Source: Candidatus Hydrogenedentota bacterium (lineage in GTDB: Bacteria > Hydrogenedentota > Hydrogenedentia > Hydrogenedentales > SLHB01). From it: DNA of 64,000 nt. The notes below the pieces were generated by a model, which saw nothing but the letters and a program-made list of their open reading frames with translations, was not told where the DNA came from and did not search any database. Location: positions 2,631 to 66,630 of the forward strand of contig DAOTMJ010000027.1 in NCBI GenBank assembly GCA_035450225.1, given 5' to 3'. This document shows, one piece after another, positions 7,533 to 34,600 of the stretch (its first letter is position 1; each line of letters opens with the position of its first letter). The position numbers and the translations under genes are program-made.

Positions 7533-8693
7533 ATGATTGTGCTTTATAAAGAACCACTTCGTAAATTCTTTATTATGTTGCCGGTGGCGATAATAGCGTT
7601 CATCGCTTTCGTCAATTCTTCGTTTGGAGAGAATGAAGGGATGAAACGTATTGTACTTTTCGAGTCAGGTAAAGGAGGTTATGACACTTACCGGATTCCG
7701 GCCATTGTCAAAACGACAAAGGGAACATTGCTTGCCTTTTGTGAAGGTCGAAAGAATAGTTCGTCGGATACCGGCAATATTGATCTGTTATTGCAACGAA
7801 GCCTTGACAATGGTTTCACGTGGGATGAAACGAAAGTCATTGTTGATGACGGTAACGACACCTGTGGAAATCCCTGTCCCATCGTGGATCAAAAGACCGG
7901 AACCCTTGTGCTTTTATTGACGAAGAACAAAGGCCATGAGAACGAATTCCAGATTATAAATGGCACGGCATCGCCACGCACCGTGTGGCTGACCCGAAGC
8001 ACGGACGACGGCGTTACATGGTCTACGCCATCGAACATCAGTTCGGAGGTTTGCAAACCGGATTTTCGCTGGTATGCGACGGGTCCATGTCACGGGATTC
8101 AACTTGCCGGGGGACGTATGGTTGCCCCGTGCGATCACTCGACGGGTCCGGCATTCGACGACATGCATTCGCATGTCATATTCAGCGATGACGGCGGGAT
8201 GTCTTGGCAAATCGGCGGCATCCTTGATTCGCGCACCAACGAGTGCACCGCGGTCCAATTGGCCGATGGTTCTCTTTATTTGAATATGCGCAACTATCGA
8301 AACACGAATCGTCGCGCCGTGTCTGTTAGTTCCGACAACGGCATGACGTGGCAATCTTGTCGCGATGACGAAGCCTTACTCGATCCGGTTTGTCAAGCCA
8401 GCGTATTACGATTCAGCATAGAAAAAGACGATGGAAAGAACCGCGTCCTGTTCTCAAATCCCGCCAGCAAGAAACGCGAGAATATGACAGTCCGACTCAG
8501 TTATGACGAATGCAGGACATGGCCTGTTTCCAAATCATTGTGGAACGGACCTTCCGCCTATTCTGATCTTGTAGTCACGGCGGATGGAAAGATTGGATGT
8601 TTGTTCGAGTGTGGCGTAACGAAACCCTATGAGACAATTACTCTCGCACTGTTTTCACTCGAATGGCTGACCGGCGGCGCGGATAGTCCATGA
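7533..8693 (+). CDS. Exo-alpha-sialidase (GH33, BNR/Asp-box), secreted
   Basis: YRIP motif (the sialidase FRIP variant) and four Asp-boxes: SLDNGFTW, STDDGVTW, SDDGGMSW, SSDNGMTW. N-terminal signal peptide; the start may instead be MLPVAII at 7575. Confidence 0.85.
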   Translation: MIVLYKEPLRKFFIMLPVAIIAFIAFVNSSFGENEGMKRIVLFESGKGGYDTYRIPAIVKTTKGTLLAFCEGRKNSSSDTGNIDLLLQRSLDNGFTWDETKVIVDDGNDTCGNPCPIVDQKTGTLVLLLTKNKGHENEFQIINGTASPRTVWLTRSTDDGVTWSTPSNISSEVCKPDFRWYATGPCHGIQLAGGRMVAPCDHSTGPAFDDMHSHVIFSDDGGMSWQIGGILDSRTNECTAVQLADGSLYLNMRNYRNTNRRAVSVSSDNGMTWQSCRDDEALLDPVCQASVLRFSIEKDDGKNRVLFSNPASKKRENMTVRLSYDECRTWPVSKSLWNGPSAYSDLVVTADGKIGCLFECGVTKPYETITLALFSLEWLTGGADSP

Positions 8694-8701: not shown

Positions 8702-10411
8702 TCAGCGCAGGGATAATTCCGCAAATACTTTTTGCCAGTTTCCTTGAAAGACTTTTCCTAACTGTATTTCACGGAAAAGCCGTGCGATTGTGGATCCGAG
8801 CGGCCCAAAGGATTCAGGAGACTCCGCGCCGACCCACTTTGCGACGAATGGCAGGATCGAATCCAAGTCATCCGTCTCGAGCGAAAGCAGGCCGAACAGG
8901 GGCATGTCGGGTTCAATGGACGACGCGTGCATTTCGAGAATAGCTGTTTTTTGGTTGCTAGCCAAGGCTTGAGCCAATCGGCGGCACGATTCCCGCTCGG
9001 TTGCAGCAATAGCCACATTCCCAAGGCGTCCCAGGAAAAAATAGGGGGGATAATCGGCGAAGCGTGCGCCGGGGACGTTTGGATCTTCAATCCACGGGGC
9101 CGATGACTGTGTCTTTTCAATCATCGCCTTGAGCGAGTCGAATTCCGAAACTTCGGCCAATGCGAACACGCGCGGAGAACCATTCCCGCCGACAATGCCC
9201 AGCGCCGTCTCGCCGTTCAGGAAATGAAAAGATCGAAAGAAGCCGATGGGATCGTGGATGTCTTCGGCATGAAAAGGAATCCATCTTTGTCGAAGCAGAT
9301 CCCGGACGTTTTCCGTCAATTGCAGGCACAAAAAGGCTTGGCATTCTTCAGGCATGAACGCGCCGAGCCGGGCTGGTTTCGCGTTTCCTATAATGGCCGC
9401 GTAGCGGGTATGCGCGGAAAGGTCCAGCCATGCGGCAAACTCGATCCCTTTTTCCGTGACATCCAACGTCGAAATACACGGATCGCTTCCCATGGATGCG
9501 GCGATCGGATTGTGCAGGACATTGTTCAATCCGGATGGTTTTTTTTCGGCCACTGCGATGCGTCTTAAATATTCGGACAATTCGGGCTGAAGATTGTAGA
9601 GGCGATCCAAGCGTGTTGCGCATACCACCGGCCCCGGCGCCTTGGCCGGGCATTCGGGGGCGCCGTACCGTACCGACGCGGGTTTGGATATCCTCTCCAG
9701 CGCTTCCCGAAGCATGGGAACGTGGTTGCCAACAAAGAGAAGTTTTCCCGCGACGCCACAGGCCATGCCGTCCGCGTGGATTCGAATGGTAAAATTTTCA
9801 ACGATTTCTTCGCGGAGAGGTTCTCCGCCGAGCACAATCTCAAGAAGATTTTCCAAGCGGCTCAACGCCAGAGCGGGATCGATGCACCCTATCACGGCCA
9901 CGGCGTTTATGAAATCGGAGTGGAACCAATTATTGGTATGTTTTCGGTTCGCGCCGGCGGGAAGGGCTTGCCACCATGCCGTGCCCGATTCCGCCAGTTC
10001 CGTGACCTTCCGCGCATGCAGGGCCACCGGGGACGGATCGAGAAAAAGTCCGAAAGGCGCGCCGGGATCCAGTCCGTAGGTCTGTAGCATATCCGACAGG
10101 GTTTTCTGTTCGGAAAGGCCGCTGTCGCGAAGCCATTGCATGAGGATGCGGGCGGCTCCATCCGCCGGTTCCGTGCCGGGGTCTGAAAACAAACCAGCCA
10201 GCAGATGTATTTTCTTCATGAGGTCGTTCATGGGCGGAAAGGCCAGAGACAAGGCGGCTGATTCGGGGGCAAGCCGCAGGATATCCTGCGCGGAAGCAGG
10301 CGAAGGTTCGTCTTCACCTTTAGCCGGAAAGACGGCAAGCGCCGTCGAAACGACAAGCGTAACCGCCGCTATCCGCACATAACGTTTTGATCTCATGTAT
10401 TTCGATTCCAT
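8702..10411 (-). CDS. Hypothetical secreted protein (last gene of 6-gene operon)
   Basis: 569-aa ORF with N-terminal signal peptide (RIAAVTLVVSTALAVFPA). Balanced coding composition. Start abuts the stop of the upstream membrane-protein gene. Confidence 0.5.
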   Translation of the reverse strand: MESKYMRSKRYVRIAAVTLVVSTALAVFPAKGEDEPSPASAQDILRLAPESAALSLAFPPMNDLMKKIHLLAGLFSDPGTEPADGAARILMQWLRDSGLSEQKTLSDMLQTYGLDPGAPFGLFLDPSPVALHARKVTELAESGTAWWQALPAGANRKHTNNWFHSDFINAVAVIGCIDPALALSRLENLLEIVLGGEPLREEIVENFTIRIHADGMACGVAGKLLFVGNHVPMLREALERISKPASVRYGAPECPAKAPGPVVCATRLDRLYNLQPELSEYLRRIAVAEKKPSGLNNVLHNPIAASMGSDPCISTLDVTEKGIEFAAWLDLSAHTRYAAIIGNAKPARLGAFMPEECQAFLCLQLTENVRDLLRQRWIPFHAEDIHDPIGFFRSFHFLNGETALGIVGGNGSPRVFALAEVSEFDSLKAMIEKTQSSAPWIEDPNVPGARFADYPPYFFLGRLGNVAIAATERESCRRLAQALASNQKTAILEMHASSIEPDMPLFGLLSLETDDLDSILPFVAKWVGAESPESFGPLGSTIARLFREIQLGKVFQGNWQKVFAELSLR

Positions 10412-12682
10412 TCACAGATGCGGGAAAAGTTTTAGTTTCTGGTGTGTCTTGAAAAAAGACAAATCGGACGGCAACCACACATTCATCAGAAGCGGAAAAT
10501 CTTCCTTGTTGCGAACCCGGTAAAAACCTTTTACCCGAACGCTGTCGGGAAAGACGACTCCCCGCAGTGTTGACAGGGGGGCATCATGGAACCGGGGAAA
10601 ATTTTCCGTGAAGCGAAAGACCGGAAAGAACAGGCGGAATGTGCATGGATTGGGTTCGCCCGACAAGGGGTACAGCTCCCAGGTGTCGCAACCCGAGGCG
10701 GGATCGTCGAACTTGAAGACGACGTTTGGGTCTTCGCCCGAGGATTCGATTTCGACGGCCACGTATTCAAAGAGGATATCCGGAACGCGCTCGACCGGGA
10801 GTCCGGCAAACGCTAGAACATTCCACAGTTTAACGGGTGGAATGTGTTCCAACGAAGGAAAACGGCTTGGGCAATAGATTTTTCCGCCGCCGGAATAGGG
10901 GCTGACCGTCGAGGGCAGCGGTTCGAGTTCTGCCATTCGGTATTGTTCGATCAATTCGACGATGTTTCGTTCCTGCCATGCGCGCGCCGCGTACAGTGGC
11001 GCCCACAACAGCAGCGCAGCGGCAGCGGCAAAGAAACCTGCGCGCATGGCGGCGCGCAACATGCCGCCGGGCCGGAGACGTCTGAGTTGTTGCGGATTTA
11101 CGGCGCCGACGATCCGGTCCAACACGAAGCCCGGGAACCATAGCGAGGCGAAATTGAGATGGAACGCGTGCCGGTTTTGAAATTCAAGGCTCGGGTAACC
11201 GCACAGATAGATCAACAGGCACAGAACGCCGAAGGCGATCCGCATGTCGCGTCCCGCGATGATTAGAATGGCCGCCGCGGCATACCACAGGCCGAAGCGG
11301 TACAGATGTCCGGCTATGGGCGTATGGATGTTTGCCGCCGTTTTTGCGATCGCATCGAGATGGCCGGTAAAGGTGCCGTTCGACAGGTTGCGCACGATTC
11401 GCAGCGTCGCGGCGTACCATCGCGCGACAACGTCGCCGGGAAAAGTGGCGGCGATTTCGTAGACATAGCGTCTCGCGGCCTTTTCCGCGGGCGGGGTCCA
11501 GATATCCATGCTTTCGCTCATCATGAGCGCCGCCTGGGGCGCGAACGCGAGCGTGGGCGTTGCCGGCGTGGCCAAGGCTTCTCCGAACGCCGTGAACAGC
11601 AGGGCTAGGTAAAATCCGGGCAGCGATTGGTAATAGGCCAGGTGCGTTTTTGCGTGGGTGTAGATGAAGGCATGAACGAGGTAATCGGCATTGGAGAAGA
11701 GCGGCGTATAGGACGCGCGTTCGAGATCGACGGATTGCAGGCATGGCAGCGAGAACCCCTGGGTCAGATAGAAGGCGTTGTTGCCGCCGGTTTCGGAGGT
11801 AATCGAAAGCGCGGGCCATGCCGGAACAACAAAGGCCGCAAGGGTCAGCGCGGCGCCCGTCATGCGTGTTTTCAACGGGAGGCGTTGCACACCGCGAGGC
11901 GGACAACCGGCCCGATCCGTCGGATCGGACGGATCCGACGGATTGGTCTTAGGCTCTACGGGCGGCGTCCCGCGCGCAAGGAACAACAGGAAGAACAGCG
12001 CAAGCGGCAGGCAAACAACGGCATCCTGCCGAAATCCCATCCCCGCGCCGATGACGAGTCCCATGGCCAAGGCCGTAGCGAAATAGCGCTGTCGGGTGAC
12101 GGGCCGCACGATAAGGCAGCCGCAGAGAAAAAGCGCCGCGAGGATGAACGGCGCCTTCGTGAAATCGCGAATGGACGGGAGTTCCACAAGCATCGAAGGC
12201 GACGACATGGCCGCCGCCGCGCCGGCCAGCGCGATCGGTCGCCGCATGCCGAGGCGGAAAATGCCGTAGACGACGGCGGCCGTTGCGCCGAAGAACAACG
12301 ACGACAGAATGGCCACGTTGGCCCACGAGATGCCGAACAGGCGCCACACAATCCCTACCGCGTAAATCAGGTAAAAGCGATCCTGGTAGAAAAGGCCCCG
12401 TGCCGGCTGGACGGGCAGTCCGGAAGGAAGCGGTTTTTCCAGCCGGGGCGTTTTATGGGCCAGGAAATCCTGCACGCCGTCCGGCAGCGTCTGCGATTCT
12501 GAAAATCCGTATCCCGAGGCATAAAAAACGGCCGGACGCAACATGTCCGAGACATTGTGTTCGGGACCGGTGACAATGCCGAACGCTTTCATGTAGGACC
12601 AGCAGCCGACGGTTGCGACGACGAAGATCGCCGCCACCACGGCGGCCTCCGAACGTAACCGTTTAGTGTGCGCGGGCGGCAT
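10412..12682 (-). CDS. Large polytopic integral membrane protein (glycosyltransferase-like?), 756 aa
   Basis: More than 12 predicted hydrophobic helices in the first ~520 aa, then a soluble C-terminal domain. 20-nt overlap with the upstream SGNH gene. Confidence 0.5.
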   Translation of the reverse strand: MPPAHTKRLRSEAAVVAAIFVVATVGCWSYMKAFGIVTGPEHNVSDMLRPAVFYASGYGFSESQTLPDGVQDFLAHKTPRLEKPLPSGLPVQPARGLFYQDRFYLIYAVGIVWRLFGISWANVAILSSLFFGATAAVVYGIFRLGMRRPIALAGAAAAMSSPSMLVELPSIRDFTKAPFILAALFLCGCLIVRPVTRQRYFATALAMGLVIGAGMGFRQDAVVCLPLALFFLLFLARGTPPVEPKTNPSDPSDPTDRAGCPPRGVQRLPLKTRMTGAALTLAAFVVPAWPALSITSETGGNNAFYLTQGFSLPCLQSVDLERASYTPLFSNADYLVHAFIYTHAKTHLAYYQSLPGFYLALLFTAFGEALATPATPTLAFAPQAALMMSESMDIWTPPAEKAARRYVYEIAATFPGDVVARWYAATLRIVRNLSNGTFTGHLDAIAKTAANIHTPIAGHLYRFGLWYAAAAILIIAGRDMRIAFGVLCLLIYLCGYPSLEFQNRHAFHLNFASLWFPGFVLDRIVGAVNPQQLRRLRPGGMLRAAMRAGFFAAAAALLLWAPLYAARAWQERNIVELIEQYRMAELEPLPSTVSPYSGGGKIYCPSRFPSLEHIPPVKLWNVLAFAGLPVERVPDILFEYVAVEIESSGEDPNVVFKFDDPASGCDTWELYPLSGEPNPCTFRLFFPVFRFTENFPRFHDAPLSTLRGVVFPDSVRVKGFYRVRNKEDFPLLMNVWLPSDLSFFKTHQKLKLFPHL

Positions 12683-13865
12683 GGCCGATGTCCTCCGCGA
12701 TCAAGGGCGCGACAAGATCCGCAAACAGTGCGTTGCCCGCGGGCGTAAAATGGCGATCGAATTCGAAATACAGACCGGATTCCTCTCCTCTGGCGCGAAA
12801 CCCGTCTGTCACGCAGTGAAAATCCAGGCCGGCCCGTTCGCAGGCGCGCCGCACCGCCTCGTCGGGGGCATTGGTGGCCAGCATGCCGGGATCGGTTTGG
12901 AATCCGACGCGTTGCACATTGCGATACGCCTCCTTGTTTACATAAAAGCCTTCGGGAATGGACAGGACAATGGCGCGGGCGCCGTATCGGCGTGCGGCGT
13001 TTCCGATGCGCCTGAAAGCCCTTGCCATGGGCGCGATGCGGTCTTCCAGATCTTCGATGCGCACCGTGTTCAGGAAGTAACAGGGCGATTCGGCGGCATG
13101 GTTGATCATCCACGGGTTGATCAGGCCGTTGTGAAAGTCGGCCCGGACGGATTCTTCCAGGCGATCGAAACGCGCGCGGTGTTCCGCCGGCATGTTTTTC
13201 AGCAGACCCTTGGCCACTTCAATCCATATCGCGCGGCATTCCTCCGCGGATCGTTTCGAGATCAGGGATTGGGTAGCGTAAACCCGCCGGTTTTTCCAAT
13301 ACCGCGCCCAATGGACCAGATTGGGATACCGGGAAGCGATGAGGTCTCGCCACGCGATCCCCGCGCCGGCCTGCTGAAGATCGTCCCCCGCGAGACATCC
13401 AATCAGCACAAGGTCGGGCCGCAGGACCGGCATGGCCGATTCCGCGATGGCCGCGTATTCGTTCGGTCCGGCGGCCGGCTTGCCGAGATTCAGCACCTCG
13501 ACGTCCATTCCCTGTTCGCGCAGGTTGCGCTCAAGGCGCTTGCACCACGCGTCTTCAAGGTTGACGCCCCAACCATAGGTGAATGAATCGCCTATCGCCG
13601 CGATTCTGTACGCGCTCGTCTTTTTCCGCGGTGTTTCCCGGTCGCGGAAACCGAGCGAGTTGATGTATTCATCGCACGCATAGTCGCGTGTTTTCCAATG
13701 ATCCTCCGTGCCCGGCTGAAAAAGAAGGCCCATCGGACCCGGCCACCATTTGTTGACGACCATTTCGCCGACGGTCCAATCCAGCAGCCGGACGGCTCCG
13801 GCGGCGATCCACACGGAGACAAGCGCCAGCGCCAAGTTCTTTAGAAGGCTGGCTGTTCGTTTCAT
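12663..13865 (-). CDS. SGNH/GDSL hydrolase family protein, membrane anchored
   Basis: Block I IAAIGDSFTYGWGV and block V DRHFTPAGN (Asp/His). Start MKRTASLL has an ATGA overlap with the upstream gene's stop, suggesting translational coupling. Confidence 0.7.
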   Translation of the reverse strand: MKRTASLLKNLALALVSVWIAAGAVRLLDWTVGEMVVNKWWPGPMGLLFQPGTEDHWKTRDYACDEYINSLGFRDRETPRKKTSAYRIAAIGDSFTYGWGVNLEDAWCKRLERNLREQGMDVEVLNLGKPAAGPNEYAAIAESAMPVLRPDLVLIGCLAGDDLQQAGAGIAWRDLIASRYPNLVHWARYWKNRRVYATQSLISKRSAEECRAIWIEVAKGLLKNMPAEHRARFDRLEESVRADFHNGLINPWMINHAAESPCYFLNTVRIEDLEDRIAPMARAFRRIGNAARRYGARAIVLSIPEGFYVNKEAYRNVQRVGFQTDPGMLATNAPDEAVRRACERAGLDFHCVTDGFRARGEESGLYFEFDRHFTPAGNALFADLVAPLIAEDIGHAARAH

Positions 13866-15019
13866 CGTACGGTTTTCCCGGTCAACGACGCTCGTTTCAA
13901 TTCGATTTGCTCCGTGATGCGCTCCTCGAAGGCGGCCATCATGTGCTCCACGCCTTGATCGTTGAGATGGCACCAGTCGGTGAACAGGGTCTCGCCCGGA
14001 ACGCCGTGCGGTTCCGCGGCGATGATTTTCGCCTCGACATCCGCGAGCGGGATTCCTTTTTCCCGCGCGATTTTCCGGATGATGGCGTTTTCGGTGTCCG
14101 AGGCCTGATGGCGCGTCGATCGTTTCAGAACCTCGCGCGCGTATTGCGCGCCTTCCGCGAATTGTCCGCGTGCGAAAAATTCGCGTATGGTTTCTCGTTC
14201 CCTTCCGTTATCCAGTCGCGGATTGCAGAGGTTTGACGGTACGCTTGACAAAACGAGCGGCACGTTTTTCATTTGGCACATCGCAACCATAAGCGACAGG
14301 TTGTGTTCGAACACGGTCATGCGTTCGTCAATCTGTTCCGGCGTGAAGGTCTTGAGCCGGGTGCTGCCGTTTTCCTCCGGAGACAAGCGCAGCAGTTCGC
14401 GGTTGCGTTCGCGCCGCATCGCGTTTACCCGCAGCATGGCGGCGCGATCGCGGATGAAACGGCAAAACGCGGACTTGTACAGCGCCCGCTGAAGCGGCAG
14501 CGACCACAACCGCACGAATTCCAATTGTTCCTGTTCCTCGAATTCGTTGTTTCCCTCGTAGAACACAATGAGATCGGGCTGGTAGCCGAGCAGTTCCGCC
14601 ACGACGGGGACCAGCCGGTGGGTTCCGTAGCCGCACCCGCCCGCGTTGATGAACTCGAACCGGCACAGGTCCGCATAACGGACAGCCATGCGCAACGCAA
14701 GCGATCGGATGGCGCCGCGGGCGTAGTTGATGGACGATCCGCCCACGAAAAAAACGCGGAACGTGTTTTCCGGCTTCGGCATCTTGAAGTATTGGTCTTG
14801 AAACGAGACGCGTTTTTGCGGGGCCGTGATCATCGTATCCGGCGATTTTGCGTCCGGAACGAAAAGGCGGCTGTTCGCGTCGAACCCCCATCCGTAATCC
14901 ACGGGCAGCGGCGGCCGCCAGATTTCGACCACCCGAAAGAGGGACTCCAACAGCACCGCGAGCAGCACGAGCGGCAGCAACGAATAGACAATCGTCTTGC
15001 CAACGCTAAGCGAGGACAT
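13862..15019 (-). CDS. SGNH-like hydrolase (GGS variant), membrane anchored; paralogue of 60182..61465
   Basis: N-terminal TM helix. FFVGGSSINYA block I variant; G.G.HRL.PV.AE.L.Y.PD.I.YEGNNEFEE; C-terminal DWCHLNDQG block V. Clear similarity to ORF 60182..61465. Confidence 0.55.
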   Translation of the reverse strand: MSSLSVGKTIVYSLLPLVLLAVLLESLFRVVEIWRPPLPVDYGWGFDANSRLFVPDAKSPDTMITAPQKRVSFQDQYFKMPKPENTFRVFFVGGSSINYARGAIRSLALRMAVRYADLCRFEFINAGGCGYGTHRLVPVVAELLGYQPDLIVFYEGNNEFEEQEQLEFVRLWSLPLQRALYKSAFCRFIRDRAAMLRVNAMRRERNRELLRLSPEENGSTRLKTFTPEQIDERMTVFEHNLSLMVAMCQMKNVPLVLSSVPSNLCNPRLDNGRERETIREFFARGQFAEGAQYAREVLKRSTRHQASDTENAIIRKIAREKGIPLADVEAKIIAAEPHGVPGETLFTDWCHLNDQGVEHMMAAFEERITEQIELKRASLTGKTVR

Positions 15020-15067
15020 GGCGACGTGTGGCGGCCCGGCGGCGCGCCGGTCCTTCTTGATGAATGT

Positions 15068-16135
15068 TCATATGAAATTGACGTGATCCGGAGGGTGCTT
15101 GAGATCCCACAGGTACCGGTTTACCTCGTCCATCCGGCAGTTGATGCGACATTGGTGCGCGTCCATCTCGTTTTGAACCCACGCGATGACCGCCCGCCGC
15201 TGTTCGCCGTTCCAGATTTCCCCGAAGGTATTCTCGTACAGGTTTCCCAGCAGGAACCGTTCATCGCCGAGATAATTGCAGCAGCCCCACACCTTGCCCG
15301 CGGCGTCAATGTATGTCCAGAACGACATCGCGTAACAGCGGTCATACGAACGGGCCGCCTCATCCCATTTGCGCATCGCGTGCGCTCGGAAAACGACCGT
15401 GAAATCGGGCGTGTTGAACCGCCGCAATTCTTCCGCGAGGGCGAGATCCTGCTCGTAGGAAACCTCCCGGTACTCGTCCGTGATGCTGAGTGGATGCTGC
15501 GAATACGGCTTGATTGCGAGATAATCCATGCCGATATCGCGCGCAATGCCGGCCAGCGTGACCGCTTCGGTCCGGTTTTCCGGCAACAGGATCATCTGTA
15601 GGCCAAGGGCGCAGGCCCACCCGTTGGCCCTTCGCATCTGGGCGGCTTGCTGGAGATTTTCGATGACGGTGTCGAAATCGCCCGGCTGCGTGCGGTGCAG
15701 ATAGGCGTAGGTGTCCCGTGTGCCCGCGTCGAAACTGACCCGGACCCATTGCGCATGCGGAAGAATCGCCTCCGCCTTTTCGGGCGTGAACAGGACCCCG
15801 TTGGTATTGAGCGCCTGATCTATGCCCGCGGCCTTGCCGGCCTGAATAATCTCCGCCATGTGTTTGTGCAGCAGCGGCTCCCCCTCCCCCGCGTGCATGA
15901 TGCTTTTGACGCCCAGGCGTCCCATTTCCGCCAGGCGCTCCCGGAACATGTCCCAATCGAGAAACCGCCGCTGGTACTTCATGAAGTCTTTGCCGCAGAA
16001 CCGGCACCGGTGGTTGCAGGCGCCCGAGGGGCTCGTCTCGATGTAGATGGGATAAACGTTATCCCCCTGCAGCCACGCGCCCACCCGTCCCGCGTGATAC
16101 ATCATCTTGTGGCTGTCTATGCGGAACTTGTCCAT
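15068..16135 (-). CDS. Radical SAM domain protein with C-terminal Cys-rich (SPASM-like?) region
   Basis: CNHRCRFC (CxxxCxxC) in the N-terminal third. Additional Cys at CCNYLG and CRINC near the C-terminus. Confidence 0.8.
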   Translation of the reverse strand: MDKFRIDSHKMMYHAGRVGAWLQGDNVYPIYIETSPSGACNHRCRFCGKDFMKYQRRFLDWDMFRERLAEMGRLGVKSIMHAGEGEPLLHKHMAEIIQAGKAAGIDQALNTNGVLFTPEKAEAILPHAQWVRVSFDAGTRDTYAYLHRTQPGDFDTVIENLQQAAQMRRANGWACALGLQMILLPENRTEAVTLAGIARDIGMDYLAIKPYSQHPLSITDEYREVSYEQDLALAEELRRFNTPDFTVVFRAHAMRKWDEAARSYDRCYAMSFWTYIDAAGKVWGCCNYLGDERFLLGNLYENTFGEIWNGEQRRAVIAWVQNEMDAHQCRINCRMDEVNRYLWDLKHPPDHVNFI

Positions 16136-16147
16136 GGGATTCCTGGC

Positions 16148-17689
16148 TTACTTCATCAACGAGGAGACGCTGCGGAAATACGAGACCGGGTCGAGATAGC
16201 TCTTGTTGCCGATGACGGCGCAGGCCGCCGCGCCCGCCACGTTCCCGATGAATCCGAGGATTTCGGTGGGCGCGCCGAGGGCCGCGCACGGCGCCGTCAG
16301 CGCGAGGCACGCGTCGCCCGCGCCGATGCGGTCCACGAGTTTCACGCTGAAGACCGGCGTGCGCGAAAAGCCGGTCCGCTCGTCGTAGCCGACCGTGCCG
16401 TTCTGGCCGCGGGTGAGCAGGAAACTCCGGCATTTCAACTGTTGGGCCAGCACCTGCGCGATGTTCTGGATGTCCACGTGCTTTTTCTTCATTTCGAGCC
16501 GCGCTTCCGGTTCGTCAATTGTCACGAAGTCCGCGCGCGGATACCGCGACACCAGATTGAAACCATAGTTGCCAGGGTTGACCTGTACGTTCAACGCCAG
16601 GAAAGGCGCCTTTTCGCACAAGACTTCGATTACCTTTTCCGTCATCAGCCCATGGCCATAATCCGCCACGATAACGACATCATGCTCCGGCGCCAGCGAT
16701 GCGACCTTTTCAATAAACGCCGCCTCGTCCTTGGGCAGCAGCGGATCGTCGTTCATCGCGTCGGTTTCCAGCAATTTGATGCTGAGATAATCCTCCAGGT
16801 AACGCCGCTTGACAATGGTCGGCCCGTCTGTTTTGCGGATGAAATGCAGGCCGACGTTGCCGTTCAGGTGTTCTCGGATGAATGCTTCCTGCGTGTCGTG
16901 GTCGCCCAGCGCCGTCAGGCAGTTCAGGCGGCCGCAGAATCCCGCCAGGTGGTTGTTGATGGCCTGGATGCCGCCTAGGTAGCGCTCCATGTACTTGAGT
17001 TTCGCGGCGAGAATGGGATCCTTGTTGGCCTTGTTCATCACGTCGCAAAAACAATACTCGTCAATGATCGTCTCGCCGATGGTGAGGATTTTGAGCGTGG
17101 CGATGTCACGCAGATACTTGAAGATATCTTCTTCGGAATAACGCGACCGGAATTCCTCGAGATACAGCCGCACTTCAGGGGAAAAAAGATCCGTGTACCG
17201 GTTGATCAGGGCCGATGCGCTGAACGTGTCCTCTTCCGTAAGATGGAGTTGGCCGCCGATGCTCCTGACCGCTTCCTCTTCCTTCAGGATGGCGCCGGTA
17301 TGATCGCGCAGGCCGGTTTCGTTTGTCGCGCCTTTCACAAAAAAATTGGGTTTCAGCAGGAGAATCGTTTCGACGGCGCTCGGCCACTTGTTGATGGCCA
17401 CATAATCCACGCATTCGAGCGCGGCCAAGGCCTCGGCGCGCAACTGGTCCGTGAAGACGGGCCGGTGCGGTCCTTTGTCCACGAAATGGTCCGGCGTCAG
17501 CGTGACGATGAGCACATCGCCCAGCCGACGCGCCGCCTGCAGATGTTTGATGTGGCCGATATGCAGCAGATCGAACACGCCGTGGCAATGGACGATGGTC
17601 TTGCCGTTCGCGCGTGCGGCGTCCAGTTTGGCCTTCAGATCGTCGAGGCTCATTATTTTTCCGGATAGAGGCACGGCATTCCGCTCCAT
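16148..17689 (-). CDS. Bifunctional cytidylyltransferase-like nucleotidyltransferase / PfkB-family sugar kinase (HldE-like, reversed domain order)
   Basis: The N-terminal ~140 aa carry HCHGVFDLLHIGHIKHL, the HxGH signature of the cytidylyltransferase superfamily. The C-terminal ~330 aa carry the PfkB signature DRIGAGDA. First gene of the operon. Confidence 0.75.
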   Translation of the reverse strand: MERNAVPLSGKIMSLDDLKAKLDAARANGKTIVHCHGVFDLLHIGHIKHLQAARRLGDVLIVTLTPDHFVDKGPHRPVFTDQLRAEALAALECVDYVAINKWPSAVETILLLKPNFFVKGATNETGLRDHTGAILKEEEAVRSIGGQLHLTEEDTFSASALINRYTDLFSPEVRLYLEEFRSRYSEEDIFKYLRDIATLKILTIGETIIDEYCFCDVMNKANKDPILAAKLKYMERYLGGIQAINNHLAGFCGRLNCLTALGDHDTQEAFIREHLNGNVGLHFIRKTDGPTIVKRRYLEDYLSIKLLETDAMNDDPLLPKDEAAFIEKVASLAPEHDVVIVADYGHGLMTEKVIEVLCEKAPFLALNVQVNPGNYGFNLVSRYPRADFVTIDEPEARLEMKKKHVDIQNIAQVLAQQLKCRSFLLTRGQNGTVGYDERTGFSRTPVFSVKLVDRIGAGDACLALTAPCAALGAPTEILGFIGNVAGAAACAVIGNKSYLDPVSYFRSVSSLMK

Positions 17690-17917
17690 AGGTTCAAACC
17701 GATGCTAACACACCCCTTGTTTGAAGGACAAACGAAGGAAACGACGGGATGGGTGCATCGAATGGCGCCCATAATCGTGTTTTCCCGGTTGAGAACCGCG
17801 CCGGCTATTTTAGTCTTCTGCTGTCGCGGCAATGACTAATGTTGTCGGGACGAAAAAAAGAGGAAAAGGCGCGCTTTTCGGCGGGTTGGAGAGGGTCGGG
17901 CGGGATCCGTTCGCCGG

Positions 17918-20074
17918 TTGCATTGCTTCCGCAAAAGGTATAACGTTGGGCTTCGTATTGAGCCCGTGCTACAGGCTGGTAAACGAATGGGGTGTACCGT
18001 GCACAGGAACATCGAGGAGGCGCTGCGCGAAAGCGAGCAACGGCTGCGCGCCTTGGCCGACAACCTTTCCAATGCCGTGGTTTATCAGTTGATGGCCGAA
18101 CCGGACGGCGGACGGCGCTTCACTTATATCAGCCGATCGGTGGAACGCCTGAACGAAGTAACTGTGGAGGAGGTGCTGGCCGATGCCGGGGCGCTTTACG
18201 GCCAGGTCTTGCCCGAATATCGCGCATTGGTTGCGGCACGCGAGGAAGAGGCCTTGAAAACACTCACTCCATTGCATGTCGAGGTGCAGAGCCGCCTTCC
18301 CGGCGGCCGCCTGCGGTGGTTTGAATTTACTTCCACTCCCCGTTATATAGCGGAGGGCGTTCTGGTCTGGGACGGGGTCGAAGTGGACATTACCGATCGC
18401 AAGCGGACCGAAGCGGAACTGGAAAGACTCGTTGCGGAGCGAACGTCGGAGTTGATCGAGACCAATCAGAGGCTGCTGAATGAGATTGCCGATCGGTCCC
18501 AAATGGAGATGTTGCTTCGGGACAGCGAGGAACGTTATCGGTCGCTTTATTGGGAGTCCCGGGACGCCATCATGGTTTTGTCGCCGGAAGAGGGTTTTTT
18601 GGCCGCAAACCCGGCCACGGCCGCCCTGTTTGCCTGCCGTGACGAGCAAGAGTTTATCACCCATTCGCCGGCTTCCCTGTCGCCGGAATTTCAGCCGGAC
18701 GGCATCCGATCGGATGTCAAGGTCCGTGAGATAAAGCGCCTTGCCCTGGAAAAGGGCTCCCGCTTTTTCGAATGGACGCATCGCCGGGTGGACGGGACTG
18801 AGTTTCCGGCCACGGTATTGCTTTCGGGTTTCAATTACTGCGGCAAGCGCCTGCTGATGGCCACTGTTCGCGACATTACCGAAAGCAAGCGAGCCGAAGC
18901 GGAACGGCGGGATCTCGAAAGGCAAGTTCAGCATGCGCAGAAACTGGAAAGTCTCGGCGTGCTTGCCGGCGGACTCGCCCACGATTTCAACAATATTCTG
19001 CATCTCATTCTTGGCAACGTGCATCATATCAAGAAAATCGTGTCGGATCTGTCGCCCGCCCGCCCGTTTATCGAAAATATCGAACGTTCCACGCGCCGCG
19101 CCGCGGTGTTGACGCGCCAGATGCTGGCCTACGCGGGCAAAGGGTCTTTCACTCTTCAAGTATTGAATTTGGGCGATCTTGTGGGCGAAATCGTCGGGCT
19201 GATTCAGTCATCCATGTCAAAAAAAGCGCGGTTGCGGCTGAATCTGGTCGGCGATCTTCCGCCGATAGAGGCCGACGCGGCCCAAATCCAGCAGGTGGCA
19301 ATGAATGTGATACTGAATGCGGCCGAGGCGTTGGATGCCGATGAGGGCGGCGAGGTGATCGTGTCCACTTCGGCGCTTTATTGTACGGAAGACGATTTGC
19401 GCGGCAGCCGTGTTATGTTTGGCGCTCCGGCGGGGGATTATGTTTGCCTGGAGGTGACTGATACGGGATGCGGAATGGACGGGGAAACTTTGGAACGGCT
19501 CTTCGATCCGTTTTTCACAACCAAATTCACGGGTCGTGGATTGGGAATGTCGGCGGTGCTCGGAATCGTACGCGCCCATAAAGGCGTCATCCTGGTTCGC
19601 AGCGCTCCGGGCGCGGGCACGACGGTCCGGATACTTCTGCCCGTGGCGGACCGTACTGATCCGGCGCCATCCGACAGCGCGCCGGCATCTGCCGCGGACC
19701 GGCCCTCATGCGCAGGCGTCATTTTGTTTGTGGACGACGAGCCTGACATGCTGGAACTCGGCGCCATGACGCTTGAACAGATGGGATATCGCGTTCTTAC
19801 GGCCGCCGATGGTCTGGACGCACTCGAATTGTTCGAGGAGCAATCGAAGGATATTGGCTGTGTGCTGCTCGATCTGAGCATGCCGCGCATGGACGGTGTG
19901 CAGACGCTGGCGGAATTGCGCCGAATCCGGCCGGATATCCCCGTCATTCTAGCGAGCGGTTACGCCGAACGCGAACTTCAATCGCGCCTGGCCGGCTTGG
20001 AAGTAAGCGCGCTGATCGAAAAACCTTACGATTTCGACAAGTTGGCGTCTATTCTGCAACAGGTGCTTGCCTGA
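17918..20074 (+). CDS. PAS-domain sensor hybrid histidine kinase / response regulator
   Basis: PAS regions, H-box LAHDFNNIL, HATPase GRGLGMS...GAGTTV, and a C-terminal receiver domain (ILFVDDEPDML...LLDLSMPRMDG). The true start may be downstream at MGCTV or a GTG. Confidence 0.85.
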   Translation: MHCFRKRYNVGLRIEPVLQAGKRMGCTVHRNIEEALRESEQRLRALADNLSNAVVYQLMAEPDGGRRFTYISRSVERLNEVTVEEVLADAGALYGQVLPEYRALVAAREEEALKTLTPLHVEVQSRLPGGRLRWFEFTSTPRYIAEGVLVWDGVEVDITDRKRTEAELERLVAERTSELIETNQRLLNEIADRSQMEMLLRDSEERYRSLYWESRDAIMVLSPEEGFLAANPATAALFACRDEQEFITHSPASLSPEFQPDGIRSDVKVREIKRLALEKGSRFFEWTHRRVDGTEFPATVLLSGFNYCGKRLLMATVRDITESKRAEAERRDLERQVQHAQKLESLGVLAGGLAHDFNNILHLILGNVHHIKKIVSDLSPARPFIENIERSTRRAAVLTRQMLAYAGKGSFTLQVLNLGDLVGEIVGLIQSSMSKKARLRLNLVGDLPPIEADAAQIQQVAMNVILNAAEALDADEGGEVIVSTSALYCTEDDLRGSRVMFGAPAGDYVCLEVTDTGCGMDGETLERLFDPFFTTKFTGRGLGMSAVLGIVRAHKGVILVRSAPGAGTTVRILLPVADRTDPAPSDSAPASAADRPSCAGVILFVDDEPDMLELGAMTLEQMGYRVLTAADGLDALELFEEQSKDIGCVLLDLSMPRMDGVQTLAELRRIRPDIPVILASGYAERELQSRLAGLEVSALIEKPYDFDKLASILQQVLA

Positions 20075-20088: not shown

Positions 20089-20805
20089 TTATCCGGCTCG
20101 GCGAAGCATGACGATTTCCACCCACAATCCCGCCAATTGCCATAGGGTGCGCGCGATGCGCGGGAAATTGAAGAACTGCGATTTGCCGTAGGTGCGCTGG
20201 TAGTGATGGACGGGCACTTCCACGCACCGGAAACCCGCGCGGTGAATCTTGGCCATCATTTCGACGCAGATCACGCCGCTGTCGCGTGTCAATGTGATCT
20301 TGTCGAACACGCTGCGGCGAATCAGCCGGAAATCGCAATCCACGTCGCGATAGGGAAGCGCGAAGGCGATTTTCACGATCCAATGATAGATGCGGCCGAT
20401 GATGCGGCGGTGCATCGGATCGCCGCGCGCGATTTTGTACCCCTGCACGATATCCACGTCCGGCCCGGCATGCGCCAGCAGAAGTTCCAGTTCGCGCACA
20501 TCGTATTGGGCGTCGCCATCCGTGTAGAAAATCCACTCGCGCGTGGCCGCGCCGAAACCGGTTCGCAGCGCGCCGCCGTATCCGCGGTTTTTCGGATGCC
20601 GCACGATGCGCACATTGGGAAATTCGCGCTCGATTTCCGCCAGCGCCGCCAGCGTTTTCTCGCGGCTGCCGTCGTCCACGATGGTGATGTCGCCGTCCAT
20701 GCCCAGCCGCCGGAACGTCTGTTCCGTAAGCAGCACCATGCTGCCGATCGTTCCCCAGTCGTTGTAGCAGGGATAAAACACCGATATGGATGGCTTAGGG
20801 TCCAC
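20089..20805 (-). CDS. Glycosyltransferase family 2 (polyprenyl-phosphate sugar synthase, DPM1/ArnC-like)
   Basis: ITIVDDGSREKT, DGD, and RGYGGALRTGF motifs typical of GT2. Confidence 0.85.
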   Translation of the reverse strand: MDPKPSISVFYPCYNDWGTIGSMVLLTEQTFRRLGMDGDITIVDDGSREKTLAALAEIEREFPNVRIVRHPKNRGYGGALRTGFGAATREWIFYTDGDAQYDVRELELLLAHAGPDVDIVQGYKIARGDPMHRRIIGRIYHWIVKIAFALPYRDVDCDFRLIRRSVFDKITLTRDSGVICVEMMAKIHRAGFRCVEVPVHHYQRTYGKSQFFNFPRIARTLWQLAGLWVEIVMLRRAG

Positions 20806-22468
20806 GCCGGGCGCTCCATGGGCCGTTAGGCGTTTCCGCCGGCGGAAGCAGGCGGAACGTCCGGTCCTCTCTCACGATCAGCCACTTGCGCGGCAACCGC
20901 TCCGCCGGAACGTGTTCGACCACCTCGGCCTGTCTTTGGGCCAACAGGCACAATATCCATGCCAGCGGTTTGTCCGCCGTGCAAACGGCGGCGCATTTTG
21001 GCAAATTCCGCACGGCGGACGCCACTTCGTAATAGCCGCGCATTTCGTCCGCCGTCCAAATCGTTGCCATCGTGCTTGCCAGTCGCGCGCCCGGCGCCGC
21101 CGCCACCGACACGACGAAAATCGCCAGAACGATCCGCCGGAATCGCGTTGCGGGACCGATCGCGCGGTACGCTTGCCATGCCGCCACCCCGCCGAAGAGA
21201 CCGCCGACAGCCTGGCTGAACCACAAGTAGCGGTGGATGTGGCCCGGCGTGAAAAAAAGCCACCAGTAAAGATAAAAAACGGCGATCATGAACAGAACAG
21301 CCGTTGACCGGTTGTAACGGCGCGCTGAAAGGGTCCACGCGGCGAAGGCAAGGCCCGCAAGGGCCGTATACCATGTAAACGGCTCGCGCCACAGCGCCGG
21401 AAGGGTCCGCGCTAGACAGCGCAGGCCGAAGATCAAATTGTGCTGATATTCGCCCAGCATGCCGCCCGCCGCCCCGGCCACATCATGCCGCAGCAGCGTT
21501 TGCGCCGCCCACCACGCCCCAACGACCGCCATGCCGCCGATAGCGGGCATTGTCCATTCCGACAGCCGCGCGCGGCGCCCCGTCATGTATTCGAAACACA
21601 GGACGCCGAAAAACGGAAACACGGCCAGCATGACGATCGTCTTGCACAACACCGCCATGCCGAAGCACACGCCCGCCGCAAGACCCGGTGCGATATTTCC
21701 CGGACGGCTCCAAATAATCAATCCCGCCAACAGCCACGCCAGGGCCGGCGCTTCGCCGTACAGTGTCCGCGCTAGATACGCCGATCCCGGCATGGCCAGC
21801 ATCATGACCACGCCGGCCAGCGCCGTCCCCGCGCCGAAAAATGGGGCCAGTGTTGCGTAGGCGAGCGCGCACAGAAGGCCGAAATACAACGCCATCGCGG
21901 CGCGCGCCCACGCAATCGTTTTCGGTCCGGCCGGATCGCTTCCCGCCAGCGCCATGGCCGCGGCCACCGGCGCAATCACGGGCGCGCCCACCGAATCGTA
22001 GGCGTCGAACCAGCGGAAACCCGTTTCGGGCAAGCCCGATCCGTAAACGTGATACGCCGCCACGTTACGCGCGACGCCCATGTGATGCGCCTCGTCGGGC
22101 GCAATCCACGGATACGCGTCCAGCCGGGGAAACGCCACGATCGCCCCGGCCAGCAGGGCGGCCGGAAGCAGCCGCCAGTCCGTTTTTCGAGTGGAAACGG
22201 AAGAGGCTTCCGCGATCGGTCTGGAAGCCGAATGCCGCGCACGGACCAGCACGCCCCATGCCGCGACCGCCGCCATCCCGCCGAACAGCGCCGTCCGCGC
22301 CCATGCGGCGCCGGGCGCAATCGTTTCCGCGCCTTTCCACGCCAGCAACGCGATGGCCGCCGAGGCTGCGGTGCTGAAAAGGATCAGCATCAATGCCGCC
22401 GCCAGCATCAAACCGATCGCGTCCTGCCGGCTGGCTGCCTTGTGCGCTGTGCGAATCGTATGAATCAT
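20795..22468 (-). CDS. Polytopic membrane glycosyltransferase, GT39/ArnT/PMT-like
   Basis: 557 aa, very hydrophobic multi-pass protein. Start overlaps the downstream GT2 gene by 11 nt; a GT2 plus GT39-like pair is a classic arrangement. Confidence 0.65.
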   Translation of the reverse strand: MIHTIRTAHKAASRQDAIGLMLAAALMLILFSTAASAAIALLAWKGAETIAPGAAWARTALFGGMAAVAAWGVLVRARHSASRPIAEASSVSTRKTDWRLLPAALLAGAIVAFPRLDAYPWIAPDEAHHMGVARNVAAYHVYGSGLPETGFRWFDAYDSVGAPVIAPVAAAMALAGSDPAGPKTIAWARAAMALYFGLLCALAYATLAPFFGAGTALAGVVMMLAMPGSAYLARTLYGEAPALAWLLAGLIIWSRPGNIAPGLAAGVCFGMAVLCKTIVMLAVFPFFGVLCFEYMTGRRARLSEWTMPAIGGMAVVGAWWAAQTLLRHDVAGAAGGMLGEYQHNLIFGLRCLARTLPALWREPFTWYTALAGLAFAAWTLSARRYNRSTAVLFMIAVFYLYWWLFFTPGHIHRYLWFSQAVGGLFGGVAAWQAYRAIGPATRFRRIVLAIFVVSVAAAPGARLASTMATIWTADEMRGYYEVASAVRNLPKCAAVCTADKPLAWILCLLAQRQAEVVEHVPAERLPRKWLIVREDRTFRLLPPAETPNGPWSARRGP

Positions 22469-29565: not shown

Positions 29566-30729
29566 TCAATCCGTTTCGGGATGGATGATCACCTCGATCG
29601 GTTCCCGGATGCCCTGGACGGCCGCGTATTTTCGCAGACGGACCAAGTACGCGCTAGTCATGACGGTTCCGCGCGCGACAAGCGTCCTGCCCTGCGTGGT
29701 CAGGATGGGCGCGGCCAAGGTCGTGCCCGGTCCAAGGTCCTTGAATGCAATCGAGATGACCTTGCCCTTGTCGGCTTCCGGCGGCGCAACCACCGCGGGT
29801 ATTTTGGAAAACACGGCCAGCACGGCGGGATCGTATTTTTCCTCCTGGTCTTGCAGGGCCTTGACGCTGTCCATCCGCGACAATCCCCTGGATCGCAATT
29901 GAAGATAATCGGCGGCCACCTTCAGCACGCGGCTCCCCAGGGGGATTTCCTTGCCGGCCACGCGGTCGCGGGGAAAACCGGATCCGTCGAAATACTTGTT
30001 CTGATACATCACGATTCGGGCGACGTTTTCCAGCCGGGGAATGCGTTCGAGCAGTTCGGCCCCGATGGCGGGAACGCTTTCGACCGTCCGCTGTTCCTCA
30101 TCGTCGAGCGATTCGCCGCCGATGGCCTTCGTGAGAATTTCGGGCGGAAGGGCCAGCATGCCGATCTGGCACAGCATGGCCGCCAGTTCGATTTCCCATG
30201 TGTTTCCCATGCCCATTTTGGCGGTAATGGCCCGCGCCAAGTTGCGGAGATGCACGGAGCGACCGAATATTTCGGGATTGGCCCACGAGAGCACTTCGAT
30301 CAACAGTTCCGCCGTGCCCTGAAGCGTCCCCTCCAAGACCTCCTTCTCGGCGGTGACGAGGCGGTACTGCCGGATGGCGGCGATGAGCGACTCGCCCATC
30401 AGGGCGGCGGGGCACGGTTTTGTCAGAAAACGGAACACGCATCCCTCGTTGACGGCTTCCATGGCCAATTTGATATCGGCGTTGCCCGTCAACATGATTC
30501 GGACGGTGTCGGGCGCGATTTCGCGCACCTTTTTCAGAAATTCGATGCCGTTCATCAACGGCATGTGCATGTCGGCCACGACCACCGCGAAGGGGCCTTT
30601 TTCCTGGATTTCGCGCAGTCCGGCATGCGCGCCTTCCGCGGTGCGCACCCGCAGCACATGCTGTAGTTTCCGCTGGTACGCTTCAAGCACGTTCGCGTCG
30701 TCGTCCACAAAGAGCACACGTTCTTCCAC
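29566..30729 (-). CDS. Response regulator, REC + HDOD-like domain (degenerate HD)
   Basis: Likely GTG start at 30729 with a GAGAGGAGA RBS 2 nt after the upstream gene's stop. REC VLFVDDDANVL...VVADMHMPLMNG; the HDOD-like region has CQ in place of HD (AAMLCQIGML). Confidence 0.65.
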   Translation of the reverse strand: MEERVLFVDDDANVLEAYQRKLQHVLRVRTAEGAHAGLREIQEKGPFAVVVADMHMPLMNGIEFLKKVREIAPDTVRIMLTGNADIKLAMEAVNEGCVFRFLTKPCPAALMGESLIAAIRQYRLVTAEKEVLEGTLQGTAELLIEVLSWANPEIFGRSVHLRNLARAITAKMGMGNTWEIELAAMLCQIGMLALPPEILTKAIGGESLDDEEQRTVESVPAIGAELLERIPRLENVARIVMYQNKYFDGSGFPRDRVAGKEIPLGSRVLKVAADYLQLRSRGLSRMDSVKALQDQEEKYDPAVLAVFSKIPAVVAPPEADKGKVISIAFKDLGPGTTLAAPILTTQGRTLVARGTVMTSAYLVRLRKYAAVQGIREPIEVIIHPETD

Positions 30730-30731
30730 GG

Positions 30732-31943: not shown

Positions 31944-32001
31944 GTCCGCCTCCCCGTTCGGATAAACCGGGAACCTTCAACGGCCGCGGCCGAAACAGGG
32001 T

Positions 32002-33126: not shown

Positions 33127-33132
33127 ATTCCT

Positions 33133-34410: not shown

Positions 34411-34575
34411 CTGCGGGATCTCCCATGGGGTTGTCCGGCAATCCGCGCGGCAGGCGGAAGGCCGGGAATTCAAGGGACGAACAGGACATCGGCGACCTGC
34501 CCCCGCGGAAGAAAAAAAACGGTACGGATGGCAGAAACGTAAACAACGTAGCAGAGGCTTCCATCTTCTTTTTGA

Positions 34576-34600
34576 ACGCGGCAAAGATGCCGCGTCTACG
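34576..34600. repeat. REP-like hairpin element, family B (ACGCGGCA-AAGA-TGCCGCGT + CTACG)
   Basis: Perfect 8-bp stem; intergenic between 33133..34410 and 34675..39129. Confidence 0.7.

Follow-up and report, generated by a model that had tools for sequence, protein, structure and literature searches.

The 64,000 nucleotides of Candidatus Hydrogenedentota DNA analysed here (contig DAOTMJ010000027.1; hereafter the window) contain, on the minus strand at 8702–17689, a real and uncharacterised operon of six genes (Table 1). In the direction of transcription, these genes encode a nucleotidyltransferase–kinase fusion that resembles a reversed HldE (FUS), a radical S-adenosylmethionine (SAM) enzyme (rSAM1), two SGNH proteins (SGNH1 and SGNH2), a membrane glycosyltransferase of predicted GT-C fold, and a secreted protein of 569 residues (sec569). 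The operon is composite, because the triad of SGNH2, GT-C and sec569 genes occurs elsewhere without FUS, and FUS occurs elsewhere without the triad: a widespread cytoplasmic pair, FUS and rSAM1, is joined to an envelope module specific to the lineage, and SGNH1 lies between the two. Judging from the genes only, we lean slightly towards the interpretation that the operon is part of an Arn-like envelope glycosylation system, dependent on a lipid carrier and fed by a pathway to a nucleoside diphosphate (NDP)-activated, heptose-like sugar.

An earlier note on this DNA had described six contiguous minus-strand genes with overlapping frames, and direct reading of the sequence confirmed both the coordinates and the junctions. 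The SGNH1 stop overlaps the SGNH2 start in an ATGA at 13865–13862; the GT-C gene begins with an ATG at 12682, upstream of the SGNH2 TAA at 12665–12663, which gives a 20-nt overlap (12663–12682); and the GT-C TGA at 10414–10412 abuts the sec569 ATG at 10411. The remaining junctions have short spacers, of 12 nt between FUS and rSAM1 and 48 nt between rSAM1 and SGNH1. Because the frames overlap or abut and the spacers are short, the six genes probably form one transcript. Inside the operon, neither terminator-like sites (17, versus 13.5 ± 4.8 expected) nor internal promoters exceeded the numbers found in shuffled sequence. Independent public gene predictions for the source contig (JGI 3300010347, Ga0116238_10000518) agree on all six products, with lengths of 513, 355, 385, 400, 756 and 569 amino acids. 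A GC-rich palindrome, CCGGCGCGCCGCCGG, lies at 15036–15050 inside the rSAM1–SGNH1 spacer; a T-tract is absent on the coding (minus) strand, and the palindrome is perhaps a hairpin of the mRNA and not a terminator. The intergenic region upstream of FUS contained no match to the sigma-70 consensus, and no Rfam family was found there or anywhere else in the window, so that an upstream regulatory RNA was dropped from consideration.

In FUS, Pfam placed CTP_transf_like at residues 36–141 and PfkB at 200–494 (55.2 bits), and NCBIfam placed rfaE_dom_II at 23–165 and rfaE_dom_I at 195–495. The nucleotidyltransferase is thus N-terminal and the PfkB kinase C-terminal, the reverse of HldE. These positions bear out the earlier description of an HxGH cytidylyltransferase followed by a GAGD kinase in the order opposite to HldE/RfaE, and rule out an ordinary HldE whose domain order had been misread. 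Furthermore, the scores of FUS lie 2- to 3.5-fold under the NCBIfam equivalog cut-offs for PRK11316 (149.7 versus 521 bits), TIGR02198 (116.2 versus 345 bits) and TIGR02199 (103.8 versus 181.5 bits). FUS shares with HldE, HldA and HldC the PfkB and HIGH-motif families, including the conserved GG and GAGD of the kinase and the HxGH of the transferase, and across the family a GmhA-like gene is often adjacent. In an alignment of 12 sequences from several phyla, HIGH (43–46) and GAGD (456–459) are invariant, with G456, G458 and D459 fixed. The nearest solved structure to the kinase is HldA (4e84), which aligns over the whole domain with LGG and GAGD kept; the nearest to the nucleotidyltransferase are HldC (5x9q) and ethanolamine-phosphate cytidylyltransferase (ECT, 3elb). 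By its domains and motifs, we classify FUS as a heptose-type kinase/nucleotidyltransferase fusion distinct from the HldE equivalogs. The family carries the segment EDTFSAS(A/T)LI at 153–162, in which S157 is invariant, and its TFSAS presumably stands at the place of the GxSTT of HldE, a register that we take from our own alignment, not a computed one, to the Escherichia coli HldE. In Tang et al. (2024), as summarised in PMC11461863, the motif (F/L)xxGxSTT marks heptose nucleotidyltransferases. Three types of these enzymes have been described, namely monodomain, kinase/transferase and isomerase/kinase/transferase (PMC11461863, PMC11573728), and by these descriptions FUS matches none of them.

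FUS homologues number 6852 at E ≤ 1e-10, and relatives exist in at least 576 species genomes, in the Hydrogenedentota, Planctomycetota, Verrucomicrobiota, Nitrospirota, Acidobacteriota, Chloroflexota, Elusimicrobiota and other phyla. Partners of the fusion were counted with profiles of candidate genes in the 10-kb flanks of 85 fusion-bearing loci from many phyla. A short-chain dehydrogenase/reductase (SDR) was present in 63 of the 85 loci, the C- and N-terminal parts of a split transketolase in 48 and 40, respectively, a methyltransferase in 31, an APH-like kinase in 28 and its partner of about 225 residues (u225) in 26, a GmhA-like isomerase (SIS) in 25, a zinc-dependent alcohol dehydrogenase (Zn-ADH) in 22, an rSAM1-like gene in 18, and a GT2 glycosyltransferase in 13. 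Because GT-C (six loci), SGNH2 (four), sec569 (three) and SGNH1 (two) are rare in this sample, the six-gene set is not the usual context of FUS. GSU2086-family genes accompany FUS in eight loci; in Geobacter, such genes accompany hldE and gmhA (PMC5585712). No conserved HAD phosphatase was seen among the fusion loci. The family differs from HldE in having split transketolase, SDR, Zn-ADH, APH-like kinase, methyltransferase or radical-SAM genes as neighbours.

Most phyla have a common cluster around the fusion (at about 10001–11520 of each locus), which runs SDR, fusion, (GmhA-like), (GSU2086-family), SDR, split transketolase, Zn-ADH, u225, APH-like kinase, SDR and methyltransferase, and was seen in L010, L016, L039, L054, L060, L067, L068, L079 and other loci. 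A higher-carbon or branched nucleotide sugar is a possible product of this cluster. In the literature that we searched, an incomplete collection, neither the fusion family nor its cluster was found described, and the same search found no pathway with the composition of the operon, in agreement with the earlier note.

rSAM1 exceeds the Pfam cut-offs for Radical_SAM (69.7 bits; cut-off 29.5) and SPASM (39 bits; cut-off 21.5), and reaches no equivalog threshold in NCBIfam. Its CX3CX2C motif is formed by C40, C44 and C47. The extra C-terminal cysteines that had been noticed before turn out to belong to a SPASM/twitch-type domain, in which 11 orthologues all keep C267, C285, C329 and C333. Since four C-terminal cysteines suffice for one auxiliary cluster, rSAM1 would hold a single one, as does BtrN, in which that cluster has four Cys ligands. 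A profile of the rSAM1 family searched against the Protein Data Bank (PDB) gave DesII, BlsE, MoaA and BtrN as the best matches, with viperin also near; these enzymes act on nucleotides, nucleotide or nucleoside sugars, or a cyclitol. A small-molecule sugar substrate is thus probable, but the likeness to DesII, BlsE and BtrN is limited to the radical-SAM core (E about 1e-13 to 1e-7).

The best evidence on the substrate of rSAM1 is its position. One locus (L039) has the order FUS, GmhA, GSU2086, SDR_b, u225, APH, N-terminal transketolase, C-terminal transketolase, methyltransferase and a second radical-SAM gene (rSAM2), where SDR_b is an extended SDR of the GalE/4,6-dehydratase type; another (L016) has the same order with rSAM1 replacing SDR_b. 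The same replacement is found in L068, relative to the order shared by L067 and L054 (FUS, SDR_b, N-terminal transketolase, C-terminal transketolase, Zn-ADH, u225, APH, SDR and methyltransferase). Because rSAM1 takes the slot of SDR_b, and given its nearest relatives (DesII, BlsE and BtrN), it probably acts on the NDP-sugar product of the fusion, much as the earlier note had proposed.

All six genes occur together only in three Hydrogenedentota relatives (L005, L085 and L093). Two of these, L005 and L093, are the closest relatives, metagenome-assembled genomes with FUS identities of 87% and 92.5%, respectively, and have the gene order of the window, L005 with an additional sec569 paralogue; in L085, orthologues of all six genes lie within 18 kb in a different order. 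L001 keeps five of the six, SGNH1 not having been detected. FUS and rSAM1 are always adjacent (L001, L005–L009, L085–L087 and L093), and their neighbours in the Hydrogenedentota are, in various combinations, split transketolase, methyltransferase, rSAM2, two membrane proteins of about 170 residues, GT2, the SGNH2 and GT-C orthologues, LAB_N, SDR and APH-like kinase. In L085, L086, L087 and L001, the orthologues of the window genes adjoin combinations of GT2, LAB_N, the small membrane proteins, transketolase, methyltransferase and rSAM2; GT2 is adjacent in L085, L001 and L009, and stands beside FUS/rSAM1 in L086. The gene neighbourhood, which the earlier note had suggested checking, is kept as a whole only within the Hydrogenedentota, in three different orders, and the six genes do not form a single conserved unit. 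The label Roseovarius pacificus on L001 (protein P0023, contig ctg9686l) is probably due to contamination or mis-binning; this contig carries N_methyl and SBP_bac_10 genes together with a cluster of Hydrogenedentota type.

The triad is specific to the Hydrogenedentota and exists there in multiple copies. Triad paralogues lie at L091:2836–12178 and L092:2844–18834. In L092, three GT-C paralogues are encoded within 22 kb; one of its triads is located behind a gene for a B12-binding radical-SAM enzyme, and one GT-C gene sits behind a different rSAM/SPASM gene.

The 756-residue protein encoded in the triad consists of a polytopic N-terminal part and a C-terminal beta-sandwich domain (about 586–756). 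It scored 25.4 bits against PMT_2, for which the gathering score is 26.1, and several orthologues carry a precomputed PF13231 match. AlphaFold2, run on an alignment of 43 sequences, gave a model with a mean predicted local distance difference test (pLDDT) value of 88.5 and a predicted template modelling (TM) score of 0.89. In a Foldseek search of the PDB with this model, GT-C enzymes took ranks 1–13 and 23 of the 25 best matches, ArnT being the best; AglB, EmbC, Pmt1/2, Pmt4, STT3, AftA, PglB and ALG3 were also among them. The earlier note had left a choice between polymerase, transferase and flippase, and had suggested a comparison of predicted structures with GT-C and flippase folds; by the model, the protein is a GT-C-fold transferase, and the flippase and polymerase options fall away. 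Residues D101, R143, R172 and D220, among others, are conserved in the family. D220, D333 and D417 are invariant, and D101, which closes loop 1 and may be the acidic residue that GT-C enzymes conserve in their first extracytoplasmic loop, is Asp in 35 of the 43 sequences. The family is small (64 matches), mostly from Hydrogenedentota and often with several members per contig. Some members (P0158, P0168, P0169, P0171 and P0176) have C-terminal TPR repeats.

Both SGNH proteins retain the motifs of SGNH blocks I, II, III and V and have one N-terminal hydrophobic segment each, which upholds their earlier description as membrane-anchored. SGNH1 scored 32.1 bits against Lipase_GDSL_2, 0.8 below the gathering score of 32.9, and its blocks GGSS, GGCGYG, GxNE and DWCH (S95, G127, N158 and D348/H351) are invariant among orthologues; its hydrophobic segment spans residues 10–28. 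SGNH2 scored 41.1 bits, above the gathering score, and has a weak AlgX-type match at 274–392. Its conserved residues are GDS (S94), G128, GDD (G160-D-D) and DxH (D370/H372), so that the Asn of block III is replaced by Asp and block V has DxH spacing. Both proteins are predicted SGNH-type esterases or acyltransferases. The SGNH signature, the weak AlgX-domain match and the single N-terminal anchor of SGNH2 recall periplasmic O-acetyltransferases and esterases of the AlgX/AlgJ and PatB/Ape types. In contrast to such systems, the operon has no partner acyl-transporter of the MBOAT or AT3 type, and the SGNH scores are weak. A paralogue of SGNH1 with 427 residues (37% identity) is encoded far from the operon, at 60182–61465 on the minus strand; it scores 273 bits against the L085 orthologue, and its gene adjoins a ceramidase-like gene at 61479–63185. 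ARAGORN called a tRNA-Thr (GGT) at 61212–61287 on the plus strand, within the coding region of this paralogue, with no Rfam match at the gathering threshold; the call is probably a false positive.

The last protein of the operon, sec569, had been described as secreted, and its single N-terminal, signal-like hydrophobic segment agrees with this. Profile searches found no match to it in Pfam, NCBIfam or the PDB sequences. An exhaustive search among 1.84 billion proteins yielded 140 representative relatives, versus only two by word-index search. The AlphaFold2 model (pLDDT 84.4) is alpha/beta/alpha and TP0453-like, and the only significant Foldseek match was TP0453 of Treponema pallidum (E = 2e-4, probability 1.0, TM score normalised to the target 0.46). 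TP0453 is an outer-membrane-associated lipoprotein and a proposed carrier of lipids or glycolipids (PMC5421087). Many distant members of the sec569 family have a G-C where the signal peptide ends, a lipoprotein-like feature. However, sec569 itself is twice as large as TP0453, has no detectable sequence similarity to it and lacks the lipobox cysteine.

From the gene structure, the domains, the GT-C fold and the synteny, we infer the following course for the pathway, its sugar and its acceptor. By homology to HldA and HldC, FUS would phosphorylate the anomeric position of a heptose-type or higher-carbon sugar phosphate and then couple it to a nucleoside monophosphate, giving an NDP-sugar. rSAM1 would oxidise, dehydrate or epimerise this NDP-sugar, doing the work that an NAD-dependent SDR does elsewhere. 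GT-C enzymes need a polyprenyl-phosphate-sugar donor, hence a GT2 synthase and a flippase. We assume that a GT2 enzyme from outside the operon would load the sugar on polyprenyl phosphate, and that a flippase would move the product across the membrane, where the GT-C enzyme would transfer the sugar to an envelope acceptor on the periplasmic side. SGNH1 and SGNH2 would add or remove O-acyl groups, and sec569, if it functions like TP0453, would bind or present the lipidic acceptor or product.

This scheme resembles the Arn system (ArnC, a GT2; ArnE/F, the flippase; ArnT, a GT-C) in that an NDP-sugar would be tailored in the cytoplasm before a GT-C enzyme acts outside it. ArnT is the best fold match, a GT2 resembling ArnC and PpgS is encoded nearby, and GT2 genes and genes for small membrane proteins adjoin in the relatives. 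The operon differs from Arn in having an HldE-like fusion and a radical-SAM enzyme instead of ArnA and ArnB, two SGNH proteins where Arn has an ArnD-type deformylase, and a TP0453-like partner in addition, and in having neither GT2 nor flippase inside it. The overall logic also resembles that of Gtr-type decoration systems. FlmF2/FlmK of Francisella and Lgm of Bordetella are similar systems for decoration of lipid A or glycans. Each part of the operon belongs to a known superfamily; it differs from the Arn/Gtr-type systems in the reversed, sub-threshold fusion, the radical-SAM enzyme in place of an SDR, the lack of GT2 and flippase in the operon, the pair of SGNH proteins and the TP0453-like partner.

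A number of observations weigh against this interpretation. The operon itself contains no GT2 and no flippase, and the rest of the window contains no orthologue of the GT2, LAB_N, small membrane proteins, transketolase, methyltransferase or rSAM2 found in the relatives; because the relatives' GT2, LAB_N and transketolase block are absent from the window, the pathway as drawn needs genes that have not been seen. Neither GmhA nor GmhB turned up in the homology search of the window, in which no GmhA-like query was run. FUS falls under every HldE equivalog cut-off, and with TFSAS in place of GxSTT its sugar may not be a heptose. The Foldseek matches to GT-C enzymes are weak (E about 2e-3, TM scores 0.2–0.3), and the match of sec569 to TP0453 spans only about 240 columns. 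The triad, in the order SGNH2, GT-C and sec569-like, recurs without FUS in L091 and L092, and FUS occurs without the triad in most phyla, so that each half might have a substrate of its own. The claim of the earlier note, an uncharacterised system for decoration of envelope glycan or lipid, is partly supported; as a pathway, the operon is incomplete.

A GT2 that could fill part of the gap is encoded upstream of the operon, next to a polytopic membrane protein of 557 residues (Table 1). Its best NCBIfam match is ArnC (69 bits), followed by PpgS, PgfS and AglJ, all below their cut-offs. In the window, a divergent hybrid histidine kinase gene separates the pair from FUS, which is a weak point of the scheme. 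In L093, where the GT2 is 96% identical, loss of most of that kinase gene places GT2 immediately before FUS in the same orientation; given how closely L093 is related, this adjacency is not independent evidence. The 557-residue protein has an orthologue in L093, and it matched nothing in Pfam or the PDB sequences and showed no similarity to the 756-residue GT-C protein. The GT2 may be the candidate supplier of the lipid-linked donor, and the 557-residue protein may be a second lipid-linked-sugar transferase that is paired with it.

Table 1. Coordinates of the operon genes, the region upstream of them and the GT2 gene pair in the window
Feature	Position	Strand	Length	Remarks
sec569, secreted protein	8702–10411	minus	569 aa	Last gene of the operon and of the triad
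GT-C-fold glycosyltransferase (predicted)	10412–12682	minus	756 aa	Polytopic
SGNH2	12663–13865	minus	400 aa	Length counted from ATG; the mechanical open reading frame extends back to a GTG at 13973
SGNH1	13862–15019	minus	385 aa	
rSAM1, radical-SAM enzyme	15068–16135	minus	355 aa	
FUS, reversed HldE-like fusion	16148–17689	minus	513 aa	
Divergent intergenic region, FUS to hybrid histidine kinase gene	17690–17917		228 nt	Presumed promoter region of the operon
GT2	20089–20805	minus	238 aa	Polyprenyl-phosphate glycosyltransferase type; 2.4 kb upstream of FUS
Polytopic membrane protein	20795–22468	minus	557 aa	Overlaps the GT2 gene by 11 nt; at least seven hydrophobic segments

The separate occurrence of triad and fusion could also mean that two unrelated functions merely adjoin in the operon, FUS and rSAM1 feeding cytoplasmic transferases for lipopolysaccharide (LPS) or capsule, and SGNH1, SGNH2, the GT-C enzyme and sec569 using another donor. 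About 75 of the 85 fusion loci are without the triad, as L091 and L092 are without the fusion, and the six-gene order of the window is found only in the very close relatives L005 and L093, where the synteny is perhaps simply inherited. However, the genes stay neighbours through three rearrangements at 63–80% fusion identity (L085, L001 and L009), their frames overlap or abut in the window, and in both L085 and L005 SGNH1 comes after rSAM1 and a paralogue of sec569; we therefore regard two unrelated functions as rather unlikely. The acceptor, for its part, might be a protein, the GT-C enzyme being an O-glycosyltransferase like PMT or TMTC enzymes, with the SGNH proteins and sec569 as accessory factors or substrates. 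PMT_2 is indeed the sole Pfam match of this enzyme, Pmt1/2, Pmt4, STT3, AglB and PglB are among its fold matches, and the TPR repeats of some family members are like those of TMTC enzymes. The best fold match, however, is ArnT, which acts on lipid A, the C-terminal domain of the window protein is a beta-sandwich and not TPR, and sec569 resembles a lipoprotein that binds lipids or glycolipids; a protein acceptor seems to us unlikely.

It is improbable that FUS is simply the functional HldE of this lineage, making ADP-D-glycero-D-manno-heptose for the LPS core, with the remaining genes serving ordinary LPS decoration. Although the best NCBIfam matches of FUS are HldE and rfaE domains I and II, and GmhA-like genes near FUS in 25 of the 85 loci as well as the GSU2086-family link to Geobacter (PMC5585712; eight FUS loci) fit such a role, the scores are far under the equivalog cut-offs, the domain order is reversed, the type is absent from the three of PMC11573728 and GxSTT is altered. 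Moreover, split transketolase, Zn-ADH, APH-like kinase, methyltransferase and radical-SAM enzymes are not parts of the ADP-heptose pathway. Hardly credible, finally, is a role of FUS and rSAM1 in a viperin-like system for antiviral nucleotides, or in one for ribosomally synthesised and post-translationally modified peptides, rather than in glycan synthesis. A kinase and a nucleotidyltransferase do adjoin rSAM1, PADLOC pVip models scored 57–59 bits on its radical-SAM core, and some SPASM peptide maturases are among its weak NCBIfam matches. But the viperin match covers only the generic core (residues 39–168; NCBIfam viperin_w_prok, 55 bits versus a cut-off of 180), the C-terminal half being SPASM/twitch and not the viperin domain; PADLOC found no match in the other five operon proteins; rSAM1 replaces an SDR in sugar clusters; and no short precursor-like gene was seen in the spacers of the operon. 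An anti-phage defence system was likewise rejected, PADLOC having given only the generic pVip matches.

A hybrid histidine kinase (PAS, HisKA, HATPase and receiver domains) is encoded divergently at 17918–20074 on the plus strand; in L093 a 45-residue C-terminal remnant, 84% identical, is left at L093:2974–3108, which indicates that the kinase gene has been deleted there. A gene for a secreted, sialidase-like BNR_2 protein (7533–8693, plus strand) runs towards the operon and ends 8 nt short of the sec569 stop; it is syntenic in L005 and L093, both close relatives. A dense run of signalling genes occupies 29566–40303 on the minus strand, and includes two response-regulator/HD-GYP-like (HD_5) proteins, a receiver-HATPase protein, a hybrid kinase of 1484 residues with GAF, PAS and PocR domains, and a double-receiver protein.

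Returning to the Arn-like interpretation, we tentatively consider a broader form of it, possible if not probable, in which FUS marks a large, undescribed, multi-phylum pathway to an NDP-activated higher-carbon sugar, and the Hydrogenedentota triad is a new periplasmic machine for glycolipid decoration. In such a pathway an SDR or, under anaerobic conditions, rSAM1 would oxidise a heptose, which a dedicated split transketolase would extend or branch, with reduction, methylation and phospho-substitution to follow; in the Hydrogenedentota, the SGNH/GT-C/TP0453-like triad would then attach the product to an envelope glycolipid.

The FUS family is large and its product undescribed, and its neighbours point to a sugar chemistry that was not found described in the literature searched. 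If rSAM1 does stand in for the SDR, this would be a clear displacement of an NAD-dependent nucleotide-sugar step by a radical-SAM enzyme. NDP-heptoses are agonists of innate immunity that are sensed by ALPK1, and a new class of NDP-heptose-like synthase, if confirmed, would matter for innate immunity through that receptor; the interest would grow should the wider pathway turn out to yield a higher-carbon sugar that is new. The triad, expanded as it is in the Hydrogenedentota, offers an entry to the envelope biology of an uncultivated phylum and a context for the poorly understood TP0453 fold.

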